Shown piece after piece: positions 4,871 through 61,425 of a stretch of DNA of 64,000 bases. The notes beneath the pieces were generated by a model. The model was not told the DNA's origin. It did no database searches and saw nothing but the letters and a program-made list of their open reading frames with translations. The DNA comes from an uncultured Acidobacteriota bacterium. Its GTDB lineage: Bacteria; Acidobacteriota; Thermoanaerobaculia; Thermoanaerobaculales; Thermoanaerobaculaceae. Where the stretch lies: the NCBI GenBank assembly GCA_963739225.1, contig CAVTZQ010000002.1, positions 2,331 to 66,330 on the forward strand. Direction: 5' to 3'. Position 1 is the stretch's first letter. The number at the start of each line of letters is the position of its first letter. Both the position numbers and the translations under genes were made by a program.

Positions 4871-5290
4871 GTTTTTTCGGGCTTCGCCCCATACCCCTTG
4901 CGTTCCTTCTGACTGCGTGACGGCTTCTGTTTTGCCAGGCGGGTGCGCGTCCGCTCGTCGCTTGCTCGCCCCCGCTCGCTGCGCGCCGAGACTCCCTCGA
5001 CCGCGACCCGGAAGCGCGTCCCGCGCCGGGGCCCCTCGGTGTCCGCATGAGACGGCGTCACCGACACCCCGTCCCGGTCCGCGCGCTGGGTCCCCGCGGT
5101 CTCGGGAGACATGGCCGCTGGCACCCGCATGGCGGGTTGAATACTCCCTGCCAGAATCCGTTTGGGCGGACCCTCACGGTCAAGCGTCTGCATTGGTGAG
5201 ACGGTTCAGGCAGGTCCGCGGCAAACGGGAGGGTGGTGGTGAGATCCGCCCCGCGGGCGGAAGGAGCCATGGCGCCGAAGCGTGCGGGCC
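4871..5290 (+). repeat. Copy A of dispersed GC-rich MITE-like repeat family (long form: unit 1 about 4934-5145 plus unit 2 about 5171-5289)
   Basis: Read directly. It shares long blocks with 29246-29444 and 58684-58925, and in reverse complement with 33916-34272 and 61135-61425. It starts immediately after the ahcY stop codon. Confidence 0.85.
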
Positions 5291-26857: not shown

Positions 26858-29242
26858 ATGGCGCGAGAGCTTGCTGCGCATGAGCTGCGGTGGCGGTGCC
26901 CTGAGGACTGGCTGCCGGCCGAGTCGACAGCCAAGATCGAGCCCTCGCAGGGGATCATCGGGCAGGCGCGCGCGGTGCGCGCCCTCGAGTTCGGCCTATC
27001 CGTGCCGTCGCTCGGCTTCAATGTCTTCGTGACCGGCCTCACGGGCACCGGCAGGATGACTGCCATCGAGCTCCACCTGCGGCCGCTGGCGGGCGATGGT
27101 GAGCCGCCCGACGACCTGCTCTTCGTCTTCAACTTCGCTCGTCCCGAGCAGCCCCGACTCCTGCGCCTTGCCGCCGGACGTGGCGTCGTCCTCCGCGACC
27201 GCCTGGAAAGGCTGCTGCGCGACATCTCCAAGGCCCTGCCGAGCATGTTCGAGGGGGAGGAGTTCCAGCAGCGTTTGGAGCTTGCCCTCGAGGACCTCAA
27301 GACCAAGCAGCAGGAACTCATCAAGGGTTTCGAGCGAAAGGTCCGGGCGGCCGGTTTCACACTCGTGCAGGTCCAGGTCGGATCGGTCACCCGGCCGGAG
27401 ATCCTACCGCTGGTGGAGGAGCGGCCGGTGACGCTCGAGAAGCTTCAGAGCCTCGCGGAGGAGGGCAAGTTCGACCGCGACAAGGCGACCGCGCTCGAGC
27501 AGGCGCACGGCAAGCTCTCCGAGGAGCTGCAGCGAGTCTTCCACGAGGTCATGGTGATGCGCGAGGAGATGGTGTCGCGCGCCGAGGAACTGCGCCGCGC
27601 CACCGTGGACCCACTGCTGAAGCAGGCGCTCTCCCAGGTCGCGCGGGCGGTCAAGGATCCCCGCGTCTCTCCGTACCTCGACGAGCTGCTGCAGGACATG
27701 TTGGAGCATCTGGAACTGTTCGGCGCCCACGACGGCGGCGAGGAGGGCGACCCGCTGCTGCGCTACCGGGTCAACGTTGTCGTGGACAACGGCAACACCA
27801 AGGGAAGGCCGATCATCATCGAGACCGAACCCTCCTACAACAACCTCTTCGGCACGATAGAGGCGAAGGTGGGGCAGAACCTGCAGTCCACCTCCGACCA
27901 CATGCGCATCCGGGCCGGGTCGCTCTTGCGCGCCAACGGGGGATTCCTGGCCGTCAACGCCTTCGACGCGGTCTCCGAGGCCGGTGTGTGGCCGGCGCTC
28001 AAGCGCGCCTTGCGCTACCGGCGCGTGGTGATCCGGCCTCGCGACATCCTGTTTGCGATCTCGGGGCAGGCGCTCCAGCCGGAGCCGGTCGAGATGGACG
28101 TCAAGGTCGTGATGATCGGGGACCGCGCCCTCTACGACCTGCTGCACGACGCCGACGAGGAGTTCCGCAAGATCTTCAAGGTGCTTGCCGACTTCGATAG
28201 CGAGATGCCCAGCGGGCGCGAGCAGGTGCAGGAGTTCCTCGCACTTATGGCCAAGATTGTGCGGGACGAGAAGCTTCCCCACATCGACCGCGGTGGGATG
28301 ACGGCCCTCGTCGAGGAGGCGGTGCGCCTGGCGCGCAACCGCAGGCGGATCTCGGCGCGGTTTTCCGACGTCGCCGACATTCTGCGCGAGGCTGCGTTCC
28401 TCGCGGGTGGCAAGCGGAAGAAGACGGTCGGAGTCGAGCACATCCACGCGGCGGTGCGGGCGCGACGCGATCGTCACTCCCTACCGGAGGAGAAGCTCAC
28501 CAAGTACATGCTCGACGATGTGCTCGTCGTGGCGACCGAAGGCGCGGTGATGGGCCAGGTCAACGGCCTCACCGTCTACGACCTGGGCTATCACGCCTTC
28601 GGGCTTCCAGGCCGGGTGACGGCGCGGGTCTCGCTCGGGCGCGAGGGCGTGATCAACATCGAGCGCGAGGCGCACATGTCCGGCAGCGTCCACGACAAGG
28701 GCGTGCTGATCCTGTCCGGGTTCCTGCGCGGGATGTTCGCGGCAGAGATGCCGTTCTCCATGACAGCCTCGATCGCGTTCGAGCAGTCGTACGGGGGCGT
28801 GGAGGGCGACAGCGCCTCCTCCACCGAGGTGTACGCGATCCTCTCCGCGCTCTCGGGGATCCCGATCAGGCAAGACCTTGGGGTGACCGGCTCGGTGGAC
28901 CAGAACGGGTGCATCCAGGCGATTGGGGGCGTCAACGAGAAGATCGAGGGGTTCTTCTCGCTGTGCGCGCAACGCGGCCTTTCGGGCACCCAGGGTGTGC
29001 TGATGCCGGAGGCAAACGTCGACGACCTGCAGCTCGACCCCGAGGTGGTGGCAGCAGTCGAGTGGGGCGGATTCCATGTCTACCCACTCTCGCGGATCGA
29101 GGAGGGGATCGAGCTGCTGATGGGCGTGCCCGCCGGCGTGCGCGGTCCCGACGGCACCTATCCGCCGGAGTCCGTCCTCGGTCGCTGCGCCGCTCGACTT
29201 GCCGAGATGGCCGAGCAGCTCCGCCACTACCGCGGGGTTTGA
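26858..29242 (+). CDS. Lon-like S16 protease of the LonC type (AAA-like domain with degenerate Walker motifs plus long helical insertion)
   Basis: ORF track, 794 aa. Walker-A-like GLTGTGRMT (Arg where Lys is expected, nt 27035-27061). Walker-B region GGFLAVNAFD lacks DE. The C-terminal Lon protease domain has GVEGDSASS (Ser) and GGVNEKIEG (Lys). Confidence 0.8.
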   Translation: MARELAAHELRWRCPEDWLPAESTAKIEPSQGIIGQARAVRALEFGLSVPSLGFNVFVTGLTGTGRMTAIELHLRPLAGDGEPPDDLLFVFNFARPEQPRLLRLAAGRGVVLRDRLERLLRDISKALPSMFEGEEFQQRLELALEDLKTKQQELIKGFERKVRAAGFTLVQVQVGSVTRPEILPLVEERPVTLEKLQSLAEEGKFDRDKATALEQAHGKLSEELQRVFHEVMVMREEMVSRAEELRRATVDPLLKQALSQVARAVKDPRVSPYLDELLQDMLEHLELFGAHDGGEEGDPLLRYRVNVVVDNGNTKGRPIIIETEPSYNNLFGTIEAKVGQNLQSTSDHMRIRAGSLLRANGGFLAVNAFDAVSEAGVWPALKRALRYRRVVIRPRDILFAISGQALQPEPVEMDVKVVMIGDRALYDLLHDADEEFRKIFKVLADFDSEMPSGREQVQEFLALMAKIVRDEKLPHIDRGGMTALVEEAVRLARNRRRISARFSDVADILREAAFLAGGKRKKTVGVEHIHAAVRARRDRHSLPEEKLTKYMLDDVLVVATEGAVMGQVNGLTVYDLGYHAFGLPGRVTARVSLGREGVINIEREAHMSGSVHDKGVLILSGFLRGMFAAEMPFSMTASIAFEQSYGGVEGDSASSTEVYAILSALSGIPIRQDLGVTGSVDQNGCIQAIGGVNEKIEGFFSLCAQRGLSGTQGVLMPEANVDDLQLDPEVVAAVEWGGFHVYPLSRIEEGIELLMGVPAGVRGPDGTYPPESVLGRCAARLAEMAEQLRHYRGV

Positions 29243-29245
29243 TTT

Positions 29246-29444
29246 GCCCCTCGGGTGAAGCGGCGCCTCGGGCCTTGCGCGTCCCCACGCGCTGCGGCCC
29301 GAGACTCCTTCGGCCACGACCCAGCAGCGCGCCTCGTCGCCGTGACCCTCGCGGTTCGGCCTGCGGCTGCCCGCGTCTCCCGGCGCCGATCCGTGCGCTG
29401 GGTCCCCGCGGCCTCCGGAGAGATTGCCGCTTCACCCGAGGGGC
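29246..29444 (+). mobile_element. Copy B of the repeat family: 199-bp MITE-like element with perfect 19-bp terminal inverted repeats
   Basis: GCCCCTCGGGTGAAGCGGC at 29246-29264 and its exact reverse complement at 29426-29444. The internal blocks are shared with copies A, D and E. It begins 4 nt after the Lon-like stop codon. Confidence 0.8.
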
Positions 29445-29974
29445 GTGTTTTCCCCACCCACCCAACACCTCGAGAGCAGGCGCCGTCGCGCTGATTCCGC
29501 CCGCTTCCCTCTCCCAGGCGAAGAGGGCCACGGTGAGGAGACGCGGCTCGCAGCTTCTTGAGGGATGGCTCCTGGCCACGTGGTACACCCCGGTAGCGGG
29601 CGGAGGACCGCTCGAATGCCGGCTGACACCAAGTGCACGACGACCGCACGGCGCCGAGGGGCCTATACTGGTTTTGTAGAGAAGGTCGGCGGGTTGAGGC
29701 ATGCGGAGGGCGGTGGATGTCTTGTGGGAGCCGCCGTATTGAGGTCACGCGGAGCCTGTGGGCGGGCTGGACCGACTGCAACTCCGCCTATCCCAGCTGA
29801 CTGCGCCGAAAGTCTGCATGCGCATGACGCAATTGGCTCGACATTTGGAACGCGCTAATGGGTCAAGGCCGCAGAGACAAACGCAGGTTTGGATGCCTTG
29901 TCGGCGGCGTTCTTAGAGTCTGTCTAATTCGCGTGAGTCGCCTTTTATAGCGCAGCGCGGTTTGGAGGGGGAAG

Positions 29975-30208
29975 ATGTACAAGAACGGTGAGGCAGCCTT
30001 AGATCGGATCCTGGAGCTTGTTGCCAAGTGTCCGAAGGAACTTCAGGAAAAATGCTTCGAGGTTCTGCTTTCCGGCTATGTGCAGCTCGAAGTCGGTGCA
30101 GTGACGCGGCATGTGCAACCACCGGGTGGCCAACCGGCGCAGCAGCCCCCGAAACAAATGCCGTCAGCTGAGTCAGCCATTCCTGCGACGGTCTCTTCCT
30201 CGATTTAA
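29975..30208 (+). CDS. Hypothetical small protein (helical N-terminus plus Pro/Gln-rich tail); may be the N-terminal part of the next ORF
   Basis: ORF track, 77 aa. GGAGGGGGAAG lies just upstream of the ATG. Lower-GC island. The next ORF is in the +1 frame and is open back to 30111, so a single-base indel could be splitting one gene. Confidence 0.45.
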   Translation: MYKNGEAALDRILELVAKCPKELQEKCFEVLLSGYVQLEVGAVTRHVQPPGGQPAQQPPKQMPSAESAIPATVSSSI

Positions 30209-30212
30209 GAAT

Positions 30213-30584
30213 ATGGCCAAACGCCTCGGGGTCGCGCTCCAGAAACTGGAAGCGCTGTTTGACTTTAGTGTGGACCCGTTTGGTTTGCATGCTGTAACGG
30301 TTCCTGGCAAGAACAGCGCGGAAAAGACCCGAAATGTCGCCCTTCTCGCTGCCTCGCGATCGTATCTTGCGACTGGTTCGTGGGTCGCGGATTGGCAAGA
30401 ACTAAAGTCGCTTTGTGTGGACCAAAACTGCTACGACAGCGCGAATCACGCGGGGAACCTCAAGAAGGGCTCTGGACTGCGGTTCAAGGCAGTTGACCCC
30501 GGGAAACCGGTGGAACTCTCTTCTGGAGGGATTAAGGAAGCAGAGAAGCTCCTTAAGACCCTTTGTGAAGGAAGTTCCGAGTGA
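30213..30584 (+). CDS. Hypothetical protein (124 aa), no family recognised
   Basis: ATG at 30213 inside ORF 30111..30584, 5 nt after the previous stop. Its stop overlaps the GTG start of the HEPN gene (GTGA at 30581-30584). Confidence 0.5.
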   Translation: MAKRLGVALQKLEALFDFSVDPFGLHAVTVPGKNSAEKTRNVALLAASRSYLATGSWVADWQELKSLCVDQNCYDSANHAGNLKKGSGLRFKAVDPGKPVELSSGGIKEAEKLLKTLCEGSSE

Positions 30585-31397
30585 TCCCGTCAAGCGAGGA
30601 CCTTGAGTCGTTCCTTGAACGGCTCAGGGAAGTGGACCGCGAGCTAGCCAAACTCAAAGGCGCGGAGGTGCGCAAAGCAGAGGTGCTCGCAACGATTAGG
30701 GCGGTGGCGAAGGATTGGTTGAGGTTCTCGGAACGGCTGTGCGCGGCGGAGACACTCCCACAGGCGAATTTAGCGGCCATTGATTCCCAGTTCGAAACAA
30801 TACTCCAAAGTACGAACGCACGCACACGATCGTCCGCCTATCGTAGCAAACTGGCACCCGTAATCGCTTCGTTCACCGACAAGATTGTGGTTCCGATCAT
30901 TCGGCATGAAGGCAGTCCGGCGCAGGTTGCATCACGCCAACTTCTGGCGGAGTTTGCTGGAAAAGTGTCCGTCGACGAGCAGTCGTACCTTGAAGAGGCG
31001 GCGCGATGTCTCGCGAGCCGGTGTAATCGTGCAGCAATCATCCTCCTTTGGGCCGCCGCCATATCTAGATTTCACTCCGCGATCGAGAAAATTGGCTTTA
31101 ACGCATATAACTTGGCTTTGAGTCAGGCCACGCAGAAGAAAGGCCATCCTTTCAACCGCGTTTCCAAGACTAACGTCTTGAGTTTGCCGGAGCTGCAGCG
31201 CGCCCGGGACTTTGATCTTCTGGTGGTTGGCATGGAGCTATGGGGGTACGATCTCCAAGTCTTTGAAGAAATGGATCGCCTTTTCTGGAATTCGTAATGG
31301 TGCCGCCCATCCAGGAATGCTTAAACCCAGCGCATTGGATGTCCAGCAGTATGCGTCCAAGGTTGGGACATATGTCTTCAGCGTCGTGCCAGCCTAA
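30581..31397 (+). pseudogene. HEPN-domain (R-x4-H) protein with N-terminal coiled coil; reading frame broken by one extra T in a T4 run (31281-31284)
   Basis: ORF 30581..31297 ends ...VFEEMDRLFWNS*. The +1 frame (ORF 31212..31397) reads ...SGIRNGAAHPGMLKPSALDVQQYASKVGTYVFSVVPA*. Removing one T gives EEMDRLSGIRNGAAHPG. R is at 31293-31295 and H at 31308-31310. An upstream helix EEAARCLASRCNRAAIILLWAAA is typical of the first HEPN helix. Confidence 0.6.
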
Positions 31398-31810
31398 GGC
31401 GACAAACCCCGCCGGCACAGGACGGGCCCAAGAACAGCGGACGCCCGTGATTCCGAAGGGTAGATAGCCAGCGGAAGGGATGCCGTGAGCAGGAAGCTGT
31501 AGCTGATCTTTTCGGCTGCGATCATTCTTCTCGCGGCGATCTTTCTTCTCTCCGGGTTCGTGTACCACTGGCCAATCGTGGTCGGGCTCAGGACAATCCC
31601 CTTCGCGTTGTCCTACGTCAGCTTCCCCGCTTCGGCGGTGAATTGCGCCTGGGCTGTCTGGCTGCTTCGTGTGGGAGAAGCCGAGGTGACTATGGCGTCG
31701 CGGGTCTGGGCAGCTACCAACCGCGTTATGCTGGCCCTTGACCAGCGCTCGACGCAGCCACTGGAGGGCGGCCTAAAGTGCTGCCGAAGAATGCGAGGTG
31801 TTCCACATGG

Positions 31811-32203
31811 ATGGGTCAGGGTCGCTCGAGTCGCAAGGCCTCCGGTAAGTCGCCGCCCAGCCAGTTACGAGGGATTCTCGACGACGCCATTCGATACTGG
31901 GAGTCACGGCGTCTCGCCTATAACCTTGTCCTCACAGTGGTGGTCGTCACCTGGGTCGCGTCGACGTGGCCGCATTTCCGTGGGGCATTCACGCTGAAGT
32001 CGGTTCTCGCACTTGTCATCCTTGCAACGCTTGCCAATGTCTGCTACTGCGCCGCCTACGTCGTGGACATTCCGATGCAGCACTCGTCCTTCTGTTTGGT
32101 GTGGCGCCGCCGGCGGTGGCTGCTTTGGGCTGTGGGGATGCTGTTCGCAGTTGCGCTCGCGAACTATTGGATTGCGGACGAGATCTATCCGTATGTCCGC
32201 TGA
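31811..32203 (+). CDS. Small integral membrane protein (3-4 TM), hypothetical
   Basis: ORF 31778..32203. Hydrophobic segments LVLTVVVVTWVAS, VLALVILATLANVCYCAAYVV and WLLWAVGMLFAVALANYW. The start (GTG 31778 or ATG 31811) is uncertain. Confidence 0.45.
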   Translation: MGQGRSSRKASGKSPPSQLRGILDDAIRYWESRRLAYNLVLTVVVVTWVASTWPHFRGAFTLKSVLALVILATLANVCYCAAYVVDIPMQHSSFCLVWRRRRWLLWAVGMLFAVALANYWIADEIYPYVR

Positions 32204-32312
32204 CGGCATAATGGTACCTAGCCGCGACCTGCAACGGACTTCTACTCGCTGGTGCTCTCGCGCGCGCTGAAAGGCGGCGCTGCACGTTGGTGTTACGAGG
32301 GGAGGGGTGAGA

Positions 32313-32731
32313 ATGCCTGAGAGCGCACTGGCGAGGAAGATGAAGCTGAAGGCGGGAGCGCGGGCGGCGGTGATCAACGCGCCGGTCGGGTACCTGAAGG
32401 AGCTTGCACCGCTGCCAGCCGGCGTCGAGCTCTCGGAGAAGCTGCAGGGAAAGTTCGACTGGATTCAGGTGTTCGTACGGACCAGCGCGTGAGCTGACAC
32501 GGCTCGTGCCGAAGTTGATCAAGGCGCTCGCAGATGAGGGCCTGCTCTGGATCTCATTCGCGAAAGGGGACCTCCGGGATGCAGACGGACCTCACGCGCG
32601 ACAAAGGGTGGGACGCACTCAAAGGCGTCGACCTCAAGTGGATCACGTTGATCTCGGTGAACGACACGTGGTCCGCGTTCGCGCTGAGGCAGTATCGAAC
32701 GGGCGAGACCAAGCAAGACGCCTGGCGCTGA
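32313..32731 (+). pseudogene. DUF3052-like protein gene broken by two single-base insertions (about 32490 and about 32569)
   Basis: Three consecutive frames read MPESALARKMKLKAGARAAVINAPVGYLKELAPLPAGVELSEKLQGKFDWIQVFVRTSA | ELTRLVPKLIKALADEGLLWISFAKG | TSGMQTDLTRDKGWDALKGVDLKWITLISVNDTWSAFALRQYR. Together they resemble DUF3052 family proteins as I recall them. Confidence 0.6.
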
Positions 32732-32856
32732 GGCCACTGCTTCGCTCGTGCTGAGCACACACGCCTTGGTGTTCTTGGGCGGGGGTATTAGATCGACGGC
32801 GCATCCGCGGGACAACGGAGAGCTTCACGCAGCGAAGAAGGCCGGCCAGTCCGGAC

Positions 32857-33555
32857 TTACCCGGGCAAGAACACGTCCTTGGGCGCGCCGCAGGACGGGC
32901 AGATCCAGTCGTCGGGAAGATCCTCGAAGCGCGTGCCCGGCGCGATCCCGTTGGCAGGGTCCCCCACTGCCGGGTCGTAGGTGTAGCCACACACCCCGCA
33001 GATCCATGTGGACGCGGCGGTCGCGGGAGGCGCCTTGAGCTCTTTGGGTGCCTCGGGCTGGTAGGTTGGCGCGTTCTTCGGGGCGCGGCCCTTGCGGGCG
33101 TGATAGCCCGAGTAGGTCAGGGGCGCACCTTCCTTGAGAACCTCGGCTCCCACCACCTCGCCGACGAACACGGTGTGTGAGCCCGCGTCCAGCTCCTGGA
33201 GGACCCGGGCCTCGGTGATGGAGAGCGCATGGTCGGTCACCAGCGGGCAGCGCTGCCCTTCCCGGAAGCCGACCTTGGACAGCTTGTCCACGTCCCGCCC
33301 GGACTTGAAACCGAAAAGGCCGATGAACTCCATCGGCACGCCGTCCTCGAGGACGGAGAAGCCGAACCAGCCACCCTCCCGGATGAGGCCGTGCGTGAAG
33401 TTCTCCTTGTTGATCGCGATGGCCACCCGTGGAGGCTGGGCGGTCACCTGGAAGACGGTGTTGGCGATCTGCCCGTTCGCCCTGCCACCGGAGCGCGCCG
33501 TCACGACGTACATGCCGTAGGAAATCGTCCACAGCGCTTTTCCACTCACTTCCAT
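32857..33555 (-). CDS. Flavin reductase-like domain fused to C-terminal rubredoxin (high-molecular-weight rubredoxin type)
   Basis: ORF track, 232 aa. The N-terminal segment [26 protein letters not shown] is like an FMN-binding split barrel. The C-terminal [12 protein letters not shown]...[15 protein letters not shown] carries two CxxC rubredoxin knuckles. Confidence 0.85.
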
Positions 33556-33720
33556 CGTTCACCCCCTGGACACACGAAACCGGCTGGCCACGAAAAGACG
33601 TCCCAACTACCTGAGATTGTGCGCCTGACGCCGGTGTGAATCCAGTGGAGGTGTACTCAATCACGCCGCAAACGGCATTTTGTTTTGCCACGCGGATGCG
33701 CGCTCGGCTCCTTTCATTCC

Positions 33721-34349
33721 ACTCCGTGGAGGTTTTCTTTCGCCCCGCGGGCTATGAGCGGTCGCTCGGGCTGCGCGTCGAGCGCAGCCCTCCGACCCGC
33801 CGTCGCGTGCGACCGAGCAGGCACAGGCCGGCGTGCGGACCCTCGCTGTTCCCCTCCCTCGCACGAGACGCTCGGTCGGGGCCAGCGTCTCCACCCGCCG
33901 GTCTGACCGCTCGGTGCCCGCACGCTCCGGCGCCATGGCTCCTGTCGCCCGCGGGGCGGACTTCACCACCACCCTCCCGTGCGCCGCGGACCTGCCTGGG
34001 CCGTCTCGCCAAAGCTGGCGCGTGACCGTGGGGGTTCGCCCAACCGGATCCTGGGTGGGGGGTAATCAATCCGCCCGGCGCTTGCAAGCGGCCATGCCTC
34101 CCGAGGCCGCGGGGACCCAGCGCGCGGCCCGGGACGGGGCGTCGGTGACGCGTGTCTTGCGGACACCGAGGGGCCCCGGCTCGGGACGCGCTGCTGGGTC
34201 GCGGTCGAGGGAGTCTCGGAGCGCAGCAAACGCGGGCGAGCAAGCGACGAGCGGCCGCGCACCCGCCGGGCACAACAAAGCCGTCACGCAGTGGCAAGGA
34301 AGAGGACGACCGCTCAAAGCTCGCGGGGCAACAAAGCCCTCCACGGAGT
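33721..34349. mobile_element. Copy C of the repeat family: 629-bp composite element with about 44-bp imperfect terminal inverted repeats; units 2 and 1 in reverse orientation relative to copy A
   Basis: ACTCCGTGGAGGTTTTCTTTCGCCCCGCGGGCTATGAGCGGTCG at 33721-33764 matches the reverse complement of 34307-34349 (ACTCCGTGGAGGGCTTTGTTGCCCCGCGAGCTTTGAGCGGTCG). 33916-34035 and 34066-34272 match copy A in reverse complement. Confidence 0.8.
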
Positions 34350-34419
34350 AGCAAGGAAGACACTAGCGGTTGAGTCGGAGGGCAATGGGAGCGTAGACTC
34401 CACCCTCCCTGGGAGGGGC

Positions 34420-58704: not shown

Positions 58705-58925
58705 GCCCGCCGGGTGAAGCGCTTTTCGGGTCTTGCGCGTCCCCACGCGCTGCGGCCCGCAACTCCTCTGGCCGCGACCCAGCAGCGCGGCCCGGCCCGG
58801 GGCCCCTCGGTGTCTGCGTGAGGCAGCATCCCCGACACCCCGTCCCGGCTCCGCGCGCTGGGGACCCCGCGGCCTCCGGAGGCATGGCCGCTGGCACCCG
58901 CGGGGCGGATTGAATGCCCCGCCCG
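58684..58925 (+). repeat. Copy D of the repeat family (unit 1)
   Basis: Near-identical blocks to copy A, e.g. GGGGCCCCTCGGTGTC...GACACCCCGTCCCGG...CGCGCTGGG.ACCCCGCGGCCTCCGGAGGCATGGCCGCTGGCACCCGCGGGGCGGATTGAAT. Confidence 0.85.
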
Positions 58926-59146
58926 ATGTTCAGTGAGCGTCTGCCAAGCCTTGTGTCATCCCGAGGAGCGCAGAGCGCGACGAAGGATCCCATCGTGCCC
59001 GAGGACATCCCCAAGATAGTGGTGTCTCCGCGCATGCCTTTCCGGCAAGGCTCCCGCTCGCGTCGGCTGCAGGGGCCTATACTCCGTTCGAGGACACTCG
59101 TGGAGATCGTGGTGCTCAGGGGTTCACGTGATTCCCGGCGCGGGGC

Positions 59147-59644
59147 GTGCGGGCCGATGCGGTGGCGCTACAGGCCATGAACGACCAAGCTCTGGAACTG
59201 GCGGAATGGTCCCGCGCTGTCCGGGAATCGTCGCTCAAACGGCTCCGAACCGTTCCGACCGGGAGCGAGAACTGGCGGCCCGTCACCGACGCCATGAGCC
59301 TCGGCGATCTCGCTCATCACATTGTCGAGGCTGATGAGTGGTTATTCAGGAAACTCGAAGCGCGAGCGCTCGAACCCATCGTCGGGCACGCCGGAGCGGT
59401 GACCATCACGACTCGCGAACAGTACATGCAGCTCCTGCGAGCCCTTGAAAGAACGGGAGCTAAGCGGGCACAGTTGATCGCAGGACTTTCCGATGAGCAG
59501 TTGCGTGAGCGCGTAGACGACCGACGATTTGGCGGGAGAGTAACCATTTGGTGGATCCTCGTCCGCGGCAACATCGACCACGAGATCCACCATCGTGGCC
59601 AGATCTCAGCGTACTTGCGAATGGCGGGAATCGATGCGCCATGA
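59147..59644 (+). CDS. DinB-superfamily (DinB_2-like) metal-dependent protein
   Basis: ORF track, 165 aa. LGDLAHHIVEADEW and a C-terminal IDHEIHHRGQISAYLRMAG His triad. The start (59147 or ATG 59177) is uncertain. Confidence 0.75.
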   Translation: MRADAVALQAMNDQALELAEWSRAVRESSLKRLRTVPTGSENWRPVTDAMSLGDLAHHIVEADEWLFRKLEARALEPIVGHAGAVTITTREQYMQLLRALERTGAKRAQLIAGLSDEQLRERVDDRRFGGRVTIWWILVRGNIDHEIHHRGQISAYLRMAGIDAP

Positions 59645-59741
59645 AGAGGCTGTGGCTACCGCAACGCTGGCCGGTTTCCTTTGGGTAGCCGAATGTGCGT
59701 GAGGCGTCGCGCAGCGTACAATATGCCTCCGGAGAAGAGCC

Positions 59742-60212
59742 ATGAAAATCGTGGCAGCGATTTGTAATGTCGTTTGGTTTGGATTCACCTGCTTGGTTCT
59801 CGTGACCGACGGTTTTCCTAAGGAAGCCGGGTACATTTTTGTCTCACTGTTGCATCTGCTGACTCCGCTTCTCACCTTGGTGGTGCTTTTCCATAGCGGA
59901 GCGAGCGATGGTTGGTTAGGCCTTCGTATGAAAAGGAAGGCATTCGAGGAACAGAGGAAGATTGATAAGCCATCTTCCATGAGCACTTTTATGAAAATCG
60001 TGGCAATCATCTGTAATGTCGCCTTGTTAGGATTCATTTGCTGGGCCCTCCTAAGCCAGCCCCCTCACCCAGAGGAAGAAGGCTTCGTTGCTTTCGTAGT
60101 GGTGTCGGTGGTGACTCCGATTCTCAGCGTGGTGGTGCTTTTCCGTGGTGGGGCGAGCGATGGTTGGCCAAGCCTTCATATGAAAAGGAACGCGTTAGAG
60201 GAACCAAGGTAG
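59742..60212 (+). CDS. Small membrane protein built from two tandem 83-codon modules (2 TM each)
   Basis: ORF track, 156 aa. MKIVAAICNVVWFGFTCLVL...VVLFHSGASDGWLGLRMKRKAFEEQRKID, then MKIVAIICNVALLGFICWAL...VVLFRGGASDGWPSLHMKRNALEEPR*. The DNA units start at 59742 and 59991. The lowest-GC stretch of the window. Confidence 0.6.
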   Translation: MKIVAAICNVVWFGFTCLVLVTDGFPKEAGYIFVSLLHLLTPLLTLVVLFHSGASDGWLGLRMKRKAFEEQRKIDKPSSMSTFMKIVAIICNVALLGFICWALLSQPPHPEEEGFVAFVVVSVVTPILSVVVLFRGGASDGWPSLHMKRNALEEPR

Positions 60213-60455
60213 ATTGATGACCTTGCAAAGAAACACGACGCCTGACAAGTCGCCCGAGCGGACGCCGCCTGCACCTCGCTTCGTCATCCCGCTTGCAGTC
60301 CGTTGACGTTCTCTGTAGTCGCAAAGCGTCGAATCCGCTGGCACGGTCGTCAGCGGGGTGAGCAAGCAGGCGGGCTGCCCTCGCTCGGCGCAGTTCGGCG
60401 CCGGTCAGCCCCCGCGTTGGGCGGACACGAGCAAGACTGGAGGCGCGACCCGCTG

Positions 60456-61022
60456 GTGTCGGCAAGAGCCATCAAGACCCTGGACGTCGGGACCCGCCGG
60501 GAGTGGCGAAGGTGGCTGGGAGAGCACCACGACTCGGATTCTGAGATCTGGCTCATTTTTCACAAGCGTCACGCGGGCGTGAGGTCCCTCACTTACAACG
60601 ACGCCGTCGAGGAAGCGCTCTGCTATGGCTGGATCGACAGTGTAGTCAGACGCCTCGATGATGCCCGGTATGCACGGAAGTTCACGCCGCGGAACGCCGG
60701 CAGCAAATGGTCGAGCGCAAATCGCCGGCGGTATGCGGACCTCGAACTGCGCGGGTTGGTGGCGGCACCGGGATTGAAACGCGCGCCGACGAATCAGAGC
60801 GGCGATGCGCCACGTCCGTCCCTTTCGGAGATCCCTTCGTACATCAAGCAGGCACTGAGGGCGAATCCACGTGCCTGGAAGTGCTTCGAACAGCTGGCTC
60901 CGTCGTATCGGCGAGCCTACATTGGGTGGATTGACTCCGCCAAACGTGAGCAGACGAAGGTGCGTCGCCTTCGCGAAGCGCTGAGCCTTCTGGCGGCAGG
61001 CAAGAAACTCGGGCTAAAGTGA
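60456..61022 (+). CDS. YdeI/OmpD-associated family protein (bacteriocin-protection-type domain)
   Basis: ORF 60303..61022. EWRRWLGEHHDSDSEIWLIFHKRHAG...YNDAVEEALCYGWIDSVVRRLDDARYARKFTPRNAGSKWS matches the family pattern as I recall it. The start at GTG 60456 is a guess. Confidence 0.7.
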   Translation: MSARAIKTLDVGTRREWRRWLGEHHDSDSEIWLIFHKRHAGVRSLTYNDAVEEALCYGWIDSVVRRLDDARYARKFTPRNAGSKWSSANRRRYADLELRGLVAAPGLKRAPTNQSGDAPRPSLSEIPSYIKQALRANPRAWKCFEQLAPSYRRAYIGWIDSAKREQTKVRRLREALSLLAAGKKLGLK

Positions 61023-61134
61023 GTGCCGCCCGACAAGGCGCTGCAGCCGGCAAGCTGCGCGGGCGTTCAGGCTCCGTCTCGGCATCTTCAACTCAGCGCC
61101 TCGAATTATGGAGGCAATACGGCAACGCGGCGTT

Positions 61135-61425
61135 GGGCGGGCATTCCATCCGCCCCTCGGTTGAAGCGGGCATCTCTCGTGAAGCCGCAGGGCGATTGGT
61201 TGGGTGGGGGCATACCGCCCGGGGGGTGGCGTCACCTTTCCGCTGAAGCTCGCGGGCACCGAGCGCGGCGATTGCCGTGAGGTGTCGCGGCGGGCGGAAC
61301 CCGAACGACGAGGGGCCCCACGGTGAGCGGCGCTGCTCGGTCGCGAGCGGAAGCGTCGCGAGCGAAGCGAACGAGCGACGCCACCCACCGGGAAAAAAGA
61401 AATCTTGAAACAGCAGTTTCGAAAA
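61135..61425 (-). repeat. Copy E of the repeat family (diverged, inverted relative to copies A, B and D)
   Basis: CGCCCCTCGGTTGAAGCGGGCATCTCTC matches the reverse complement of the right end of copy B. GAGGGGCCCCACGGTGAGCGGCGCTGCTCGGTCGCGAGCGG...CGCCACCCACCGGGAAAAAAG parallels copy C and the reverse complement of the left end of copy D. Confidence 0.7.

Follow-up and report, generated by a model that had tools for sequence, protein, structure and literature searches.

The 199-bp inverted-repeat element that directly follows the Lon-like protease gene in this acidobacterial contig is a solo A arm, of subtype A2, belonging to a family of composite intergenic repeats, and is not a stand-alone element. 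Our preferred reading, to which we give a probability of roughly 0.6, is that it represents one arm of a family of mosaic foldback repeats whose units are copied or exchanged through a hairpin formed at the DNA level. The original prediction, made from the sequence of this contig, had been a miniature inverted-repeat transposable element (MITE) that would also form a very long hairpin in the 3' UTR of the protease mRNA; the evidence bearing on that reading and on the other alternatives is set out below.

Position and predicted fold of the Lon-adjacent unit

A repeat search of the window (the whole 64-kb stretch of DNA analysed) recovered the perfect 19-bp terminal inverted repeats that had been read from the sequence: the left-arm 19-mer, GCCCCTCGGGTGAAGCGGC at 29246-29264, is 100% complementary to 29426-29444, with 161 nt between the arms. 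As predicted, the element starts 4 nt past the TGA stop codon of the Lon-like gene (29240-29242, then TTT, then the first base of the element at 29246) and contains a perfect mini-hairpin, GCGCGT-CCCC-ACGCGC, at 29277-29292. When up to three mismatches were allowed, the 19-mer occurred three times in the window as against 0.18 expected, a count reached in 0 of 100 shuffles; the third near-match (61152-61170) lies in a truncated A2-type end (Table 1).

The RNA fold predicted for 29240-29460 has a stability of -142 kcal/mol (z = -8.8), which none of 200 shuffles equalled, in agreement with the very long hairpin expected if the region is transcribed. The predicted structure is a three-way junction of helices P1, P2 and P3. 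The perfect apical stem of P2 is a trait of the A2 subtype; other subtypes have GCTCGC-CCCC-GCTCGC, with two mismatches. Several long ORFs run across the element, as expected at 67% GC, but copies differ by 1-nt indels and the element is therefore non-coding, as had been proposed. The nearest named record to the Lon-like protein comes from an uncultured Acidobacteriota MAG (81% identity).

Table 1. Repeat units and neighbouring features in the window (window coordinates; P1-P3, predicted helices).
Position	Strand	Feature	Evidence
4954-5117	+	A-type unit (core), then truncated B(-) unit	Profile search
26858-29242	+	LonC/LonB-like AAA+ protease gene	Pfam AAA_32, LonB_AAA-LID, Lon_C, LonC_helical; ORF list
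29246-29265	+	P1 5' strand (left 'TIR'), unit head	Inverted repeat; covariation with 3' strand across copies
29267-29303	+	P2 hairpin, with apical perfect mini-hairpin	Fold
29305-29420	+	P3, long interrupted arm of the three-way junction	Fold
29425-29444	+	P1 3' strand (right 'TIR')	Inverted repeat; fold
29445-29461	+	Unit tail GTGTTTTCCCCACCCAC, last conserved unit bases and breakpoint to unrelated DNA	Comparison with relatives
29462-33680		Low-GC (~0.61) accessory segment, tail side of Lon unit	Weak coding scores
33681-34370		Complete composite upstream of ffh	Profile and pair search
58724-58890	+	A2-type unit (core), 78% identical to Lon copy, among its closest paralogues	
61127-61185	-	Truncated A2-type right end and tail, other edge of 2.2-kb cargo	
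61235-61375	-	B-type unit (core), inverted partner at the 58.7-61.4 kb locus	

A family of composite repeats in the same genome

We searched the assembly from which the window comes (G000; 4.04 Mb in 13 contigs, 67% GC; the other G numbers denote genomes of relatives) and obtained 49 BLAST matches of 70-80% identity, and three rounds of nhmmer gave 88 core matches at 59 loci, every one of them intergenic according to a crude gene caller based on codon usage. The matches fall into 35 pairs of convergent units plus 18 solos. Most of the pairs combine a strong, full-length A unit with a weaker B unit on the opposite strand, 94-172 bp away; six pairs are spaced 1.0-2.3 kb apart.

Each unit consists of a ~200-nt three-way-junction hairpin followed by a C-rich 3' tail, the conserved consensus of which, GGATTGAAnCCCCCaCCC, is present in other copies, and most copies also have a mini-hairpin/T-tract module 5' of the hairpin. 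In the pairs, the two tails face each other over a poorly conserved centre, so the composite is a tail-to-tail inverted A + B dimer; mini-hairpin/T-tract modules (TTCCACTGCGTGGAGG and CTTTTGTTTT) flank it on the outer sides, and the 'stubs' found outside pairs are the first 20-30 nt of other units. The complete composite upstream of ffh reads, in order, A-head stub, mini-hairpin, B(+) unit, tail, centre, tail', A(-) unit, mini-hairpin', B-head' stub and mini-hairpin'. A tree built from all 88 units places the Lon copy with C2:61054 and C6:430613, both of which adjoin the low-GC cargo described below, and with two solos. Annotated plasmids, phages and IMG/VR viral contigs contained no match to the family.

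The terminal inverted repeats are a covarying helix

Alignment of 36 A units showed terminal arms that vary by subtype with their complementarity preserved, as seen in the P1 variant pairs GCCAAGCGGG/CCCGCTTGGC, GCCCGGCGGG/CCCGCCGGGC, GCCCCTCGGG/CCCGAGGGGC and GCCCCTGGGG/CCCCAGGGGC. At least two Watson-Crick types occurred at 20 of the 75 consensus pairs. Where both sides of a pair vary (26 pairs), canonical combinations filled 764 of 936 cells, compared to 633.5 ± 7.6 after shuffling of partners; the observed count was reached in 0 of 2000 shuffles, in a test that relatedness of the units inflates. The 19-bp 'TIRs' are the closing helix P1, kept by compensatory change across subfamilies.

These results bear directly on the classical MITE reading, according to which the element would be a deletion derivative of a TIR transposon, with a transposase binding the 19-bp ends and moving it by cut and paste with target-site duplication (TSD). 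Part of that reading stands: the element is short and has no coding capacity, its termini are perfect 19-bp inverted repeats, the genome contains 88 units of this kind, the 19-mer is conserved within A2 across at least 13 copies in the sister species G006 and in 66 metagenome contigs, there was a recent burst in G006, and the unit is present or absent at the Lon site among members of the genus. The rest does not hold. The 199 bp are not the whole element but one arm of a ~450-650-bp mosaic dimer in which arms and centre do not share one history, and P1 covaries between subtypes as a helix, rather than being a conserved transposase-binding sequence. We looked for a TSD at the Lon copy, at the consensus flanks and at three G006 sites, and found none; the sequences flanking the Lon copy (…GATTT and GTGTTTT…) are conserved parts of the unit and not a duplicated target, and at newly occupied G006 sites the whole intergenic content was replaced. 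A search of the G000 genome found neither an autonomous element carrying the same ends and a transposase nor a linked transposase. Because no target-site duplication was found at the sites compared, no parent element in the G000 genome, and the termini are of this nature, the classical MITE reading fails, and we regard it as very improbable.

The substitutions within stems were also counted by type. Across all A units there were 46 G·U as against 76 A·C combinations, and within the A2 subtype 16 as against 9; these counts are small and include inherited changes. As G·U is not in excess over A·C, the comparison is weak evidence that pairing matters in the DNA, or in both strands, and neither the A units nor the A2 subtype gave a strand-specific RNA signal by this measure.

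Gene context and a possible role at mRNA 3' ends

An alternative is that the unit is a cis-acting structured RNA of the 3' UTR, i.e. a co-transcribed terminator or a barrier to 3' exonucleases, kept for that role. The start of the Lon copy immediately after the stop codon, its very stable predicted fold and the TGTTTT that follows P1 (CGCTTCACCCGAGGGGCG and TGTTTTCCCC were flagged as terminator-like) are all consistent with this, as is the finding that in 30 of 36 cases the A arm lies head-first behind a gene of its own orientation (p = 7e-5), at a median distance of 116 nt. Among the other units the corresponding figure is 27 of 51. The gene on the tail side is co-oriented in only 16 of 35 A arms; the bias is therefore not an effect of the replication strand, and could reflect either placement of A arms at gene ends in a fixed orientation or a role for the sense strand. 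Two further observations agree with the RNA reading: an unrelated second hairpin repeat lies in the same post-stop niche in other species, and the identity of the unit between G000 and G003 (96%) equals that of the second codon positions of Lon.

However, several results argue against RNA function as the explanation for the family. The stems have no excess of G·U over A·C, B arms have no orientation bias, and five composites are flanked by divergent genes. Other copies lack the T-tract after P1 and have GGATTGAAT there instead, and the number of terminator-like sites in the region equals the shuffle expectation. A scan of 28500-30500 against Rfam gave no match at E ≤ 1. In addition, the unit is less conserved relative to the closer relative L216 than relative to more distant ones (see below), a pattern not expected under constant purifying selection. 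We consider the RNA reading unlikely.

Two other roles were tried for short motifs of the family and rejected: the mini-hairpin CACTGCGTG showed only a modest orientation bias (42 vs 23) for a terminator, and the tail motif GGGTGGGG/CCCCACCC, considered as a Chi-like sequence, was neither over-represented nor skewed genome-wide.

Distribution of the family and occupancy of the Lon site

Of 18 genomes searched from the genus, 15 contain the repeat, as do 18 of 24 from the family; in the sister family it was detected weakly, in 2 of 16. Many of the copies in relatives lie at contig ends. The 66 metagenome contigs mentioned above carry the 19-mer exactly. The window is syntenic with G003:C2 and G011:C3, and all five of its repeat loci are occupied also in G003 or G011. 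This shared occupancy, together with the 70-80% identity among G000 copies, indicates that most copies are old residents.

Comparison with homologous loci, a check proposed along with the original prediction, showed that occupancy of the Lon site varies among relatives. Among relatives in the genus only G003 has the whole unit there. In G011 (L101/L126) the first ~50 nt of the unit are followed by the C-terminal part of an IntI/Xer-like tyrosine recombinase in which TAA stands in place of the catalytic Tyr codon; a short stub occurs in G010; in G002 and G004 the Lon stop codon is followed within ~60 nt by the next gene; and in G006, G007, G001, G016 and G009 a different hairpin repeat directly follows the stop codon. 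The outcome that had been named as contradicting a mobile origin, namely termini found in no other copy together with conservation as an ordinary 3' UTR, was not observed: other copies carry the same 19-mer.

The second hairpin repeat is ~145 nt long, unrelated to the family (TGCGCCGCCGATAGCGGACC…GGCGGCGCCGCTGCCGCGGGCAAAG) and folds at -89 kcal/mol. It lies in the post-stop niche at Lon (L107, L109, L106 and L105) and at one G006 site, and has 12 BLAST matches in the G000 genome, e.g. C5:119265-119392 and C6:840469-840590.

Divergence of the unit is decoupled from that of the adjacent gene

Between G000 and G003, Lon identity is 91% at first, 95% at second and 68% at third codon positions. The unit with its tail reaches 95.9%, and ordinary intergenic DNA is unalignable. 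The Lon-adjacent unit is also found in three of the 66 metagenome contigs. In two of these the third positions of Lon have diverged about as far as in G003 and the unit has changed little: L222 has 69% identity at third positions and 97.3% in the unit, and L257 has 72% at third positions and ~95% in the unit outside a 69-nt nested insert. In the third, L216, third positions are 88% identical and the unit 92.8%. The closer relative therefore has the more diverged unit, a pattern not expected from vertical descent under constant constraint, and this comparison of sequences suggests that units have been re-seeded or exchanged.

The 69-nt insert in the Lon-adjacent unit of L257 (Ga0315295_10024697) is composed of right-end and tail sequence from a different A-type unit, and is a nested insertion or a recombination scar.

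The sister species G006, with its copies of the identical 19-mer, gave a second view of how the family changes. The entity repeated there is a composite of ~590-650 bp, in which A2 arms average 94% identity (maximum 99%), centres 76% and B arms 81%, the B arms being of at least three subtypes. The A2 subtype multiplied recently in G006, and the different identities of arms, centres and B arms indicate that the composites evolved as mosaics. Three G006 sites were compared with relatives. At two of them the closest relatives have no composite, its place being taken by other sequence or by the second repeat family; there the whole intergenic content was replaced and no direct repeat was left, and the comparison of G006 sites with relatives yielded no clean empty site at an excision or insertion junction. 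At the third site, beside a tRNA gene, G009 has the same A2 copy, the G001 element is flipped and internally deleted, the B unit of G014 is internally deleted, and G017 has an array of stubs.

Composites also differ in orientation between relatives. The ffh composite at 33681-34370 is flipped with respect to G003:C2:40500-41100, and at another site the composite has opposite orientations in G006 (L143) and G001 (L169). These two independent loci suggest in-place inversion between the terminal mini-hairpin modules.

Downstream of a methyltransferase-like gene, the intergenic region of G007 (L189) is filled by CCGTGGT/CCGTGGTCCGTGG tandem repeats where G006 has a composite.

The tail end is a breakpoint adjoining low-GC cargo

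Homology between G000 and G003 extends through Lon and the unit and ends at 29461, i.e. at the end of the tail; beyond this point the two sequences are unrelated. Four different downstream sequences (those of G000, G003/L222, L216 and L257) begin within a few nt of the tail end, and the segment at 29462-33680 differs among G000, G003 and G011. In G000 this cargo extends as far as the outer edge of the ffh composite, where it has no partner tail. All seven regions between long pairs, including the 4.3 kb past the Lon unit, have a GC content of 0.576-0.638 compared to ~0.67 for the genome. They contain unrelated genes of accessory type (DinB-like, YdeI-like, membrane proteins, NYN/LabA-like and a HEPN module), and in the G000 genome no transposase was found in the regions between long pairs.

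The other low-GC cargo of the window, 2.2 kb long, lies at 58.9-61.1 kb, where G003 has a short composite with a 17-nt centre. It is bounded by inverted tails: the tail of the A2-type unit at 58724-58890 ends at ~58934, adjoining the cargo, and the right tail comes from the truncated A2 end. We considered whether arm, cargo and arm form a single transposon. Parts of the 58.9-61.1 kb cargo, including its genes, are found at other places in relatives with no units nearby, and we therefore rejected joint movement of arms and cargo. The only linkage that recurs is that of A2 with a DinB-like gene, seen in G013 and G010, and it is probably orthologous in these two genomes.

Weak coding scores coincide with low GC in 29462-32856 and 58935-61125. 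Elsewhere in the G000 genome, cargo between long pairs includes a 303-aa protein of unknown family (C6:429505-430416) and a 210-aa NYN/LabA-like protein (C6:1492993-1493625), which may be defence or stress genes in repeat-bounded pockets.

Such breakpoints raise the alternative that the units are attC-like sites, the folded unit being the substrate of a site-specific recombinase and cassettes being inserted or exchanged at the tail end. In its favour are a structure conserved beyond sequence, the position of the breakpoints to low-GC variable DNA, a few nt at most from the end of the tail in five lineages and likewise at both edges of the 58.9-61.1 kb cargo, and the G011 unit cut at ~50 nt beside the IntI/Xer-like recombinase pseudogene fragment. 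Against it, the G000 genome has no integron integrase at the family cut-off (the best TIGR02249 score was 79.7 bits vs a cut-off of 265, and the scores are only Xer-like), the alignment contains no GTTRRRY core and R/L core boxes were not seen, and the units form inverted pairs rather than direct arrays. The cargo genes found away from units and the missing partner tail at the far end of the Lon cargo also speak against cassettes of this type, and we think it very doubtful that the units are attC-like sites.

Search for a mobilising enzyme

The G000 genome encodes one RAYT (C5:250111-250581), which lies within arrays of its own short REP, GTGGGAGCGGCATCTTGCCGCGAC. It was rejected as the enzyme of the family because the REPs that flank it are short and unrelated to the family, and no Y1 transposase gene in the G000 genome is flanked by family units. 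Two Y1+HTH proteins were rejected as well, as they lack flanking repeats and their distribution does not track that of the family: they are spread over the order whether or not the repeat is present, occur in 15 of 16 sister-family genomes, mostly without the repeat, and are absent from the repeat-bearing G002 and G004.

The RAYT-like Y1 transposase is 156 aa long, and the short REP arrays around it (C5:249611-250900) have the form GTGGGAGCGGCATCTTGCCGCGAC/GGTCGCGCCTGGAAGGCGCTCCCAC, which we take to resemble Pseudomonas REPs.

Discussion

Units may or may not still be mobile in G000; judging from the sequence comparisons, they most likely spread, or are exchanged, as folded DNA. In the mechanism that we favour, units folded in single-stranded or cruciform DNA would be copied or exchanged by a function acting in trans, so that the family would spread in the manner of REP, BIME and REPIN elements and not by cut-and-paste TIR transposition. 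Once settled, units would persist and act as hotspots of recombination and indels, with foreign genes accumulating alongside. As a by-product, a hairpin starting 4 nt after a stop codon and followed by UGUUUU could act on transcription, by pausing or ending it, or protect the protease mRNA at its 3' end; the predicted hairpin probably does shape that 3' end, as a side effect.

A bolder proposal is that the folded units serve as docking or crossover points for an undescribed exchange system that depends on hairpins and has the logic of an integron but no integron integrase. Accessory DNA could then be swapped between lineages at the end of the C-rich tail, with the unit travelling together with the incoming DNA. 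If true, this would explain both the in-place flips of composites and why the Lon unit is 96-97% identical when third positions of the adjacent gene are at ~69%. We rate this proposal as quite unlikely.

On the preferred reading of mosaic foldback repeats, large structures of this kind would mark the 3' ends of genes and the edges of strain-specific low-GC segments. Acidobacteriota are abundant and little studied, and the literature that we searched contained no description of repeat families in this phylum. The family would provide a landmark for accessory DNA and for assembly breakpoints in their genomes. It could also be used to test whether such hairpins function at the DNA or the RNA level, and a REP/BIME-like family without a RAYT flanked by its units raises the question of the copying agent.

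Several known systems resemble the family in part. Integron attC sites are imperfect palindromes in which the folded single-strand structure is conserved over sequence, and they lie at the boundary of variable cassettes; the present units differ in having no IntI and no R'/R'' core, in forming scattered inverted pairs and in being at least twice as long. MITEs such as Correia in Neisseria and Nezha in cyanobacteria are likewise short multi-copy elements without coding capacity, bounded by inverted termini; they influence the transcripts of adjacent genes, and the sites that they occupy vary between relatives. In contrast to these, the family described here has no TSD or parent IS, its termini covary, and the 199 bp are one arm of a mosaic dimer.

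Papers on other stem-loop repeat families include PMC3733652 and PMC2267715. ERIC/IRU, BOX, the SMAG repeats of Stenotrophomonas and the small non-coding repeats of Deinococcus are lineage-specific, modular, hairpin-forming and intergenic, as is this family, but the units described here form a three-way junction with a tail. The nearest parallel is with the REP and BIME sequences of enterobacteria and with REPINs, the REP doublets tied to RAYT in Pseudomonas. These too are extragenic palindromes in tens to hundreds of copies, arranged as mosaics of alternating orientation and lying mostly past the 3' ends of genes, and they share with the present family hairpin formation, long vertical inheritance and the lack of target-site duplication. 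The family differs in that a ~200-nt three-way junction replaces the 20-40-nt stem-loop of REP, no RAYT is flanked by its units, and its units have mini-hairpin/T-tract flanks in addition to a C-rich tail. It is confined to this genus and family of Acidobacteriota, and its closest kinds are the REP/BIME/REPIN mosaics (PMC2817692, PMC3116915, PMC3337134), of which it is a new variant.
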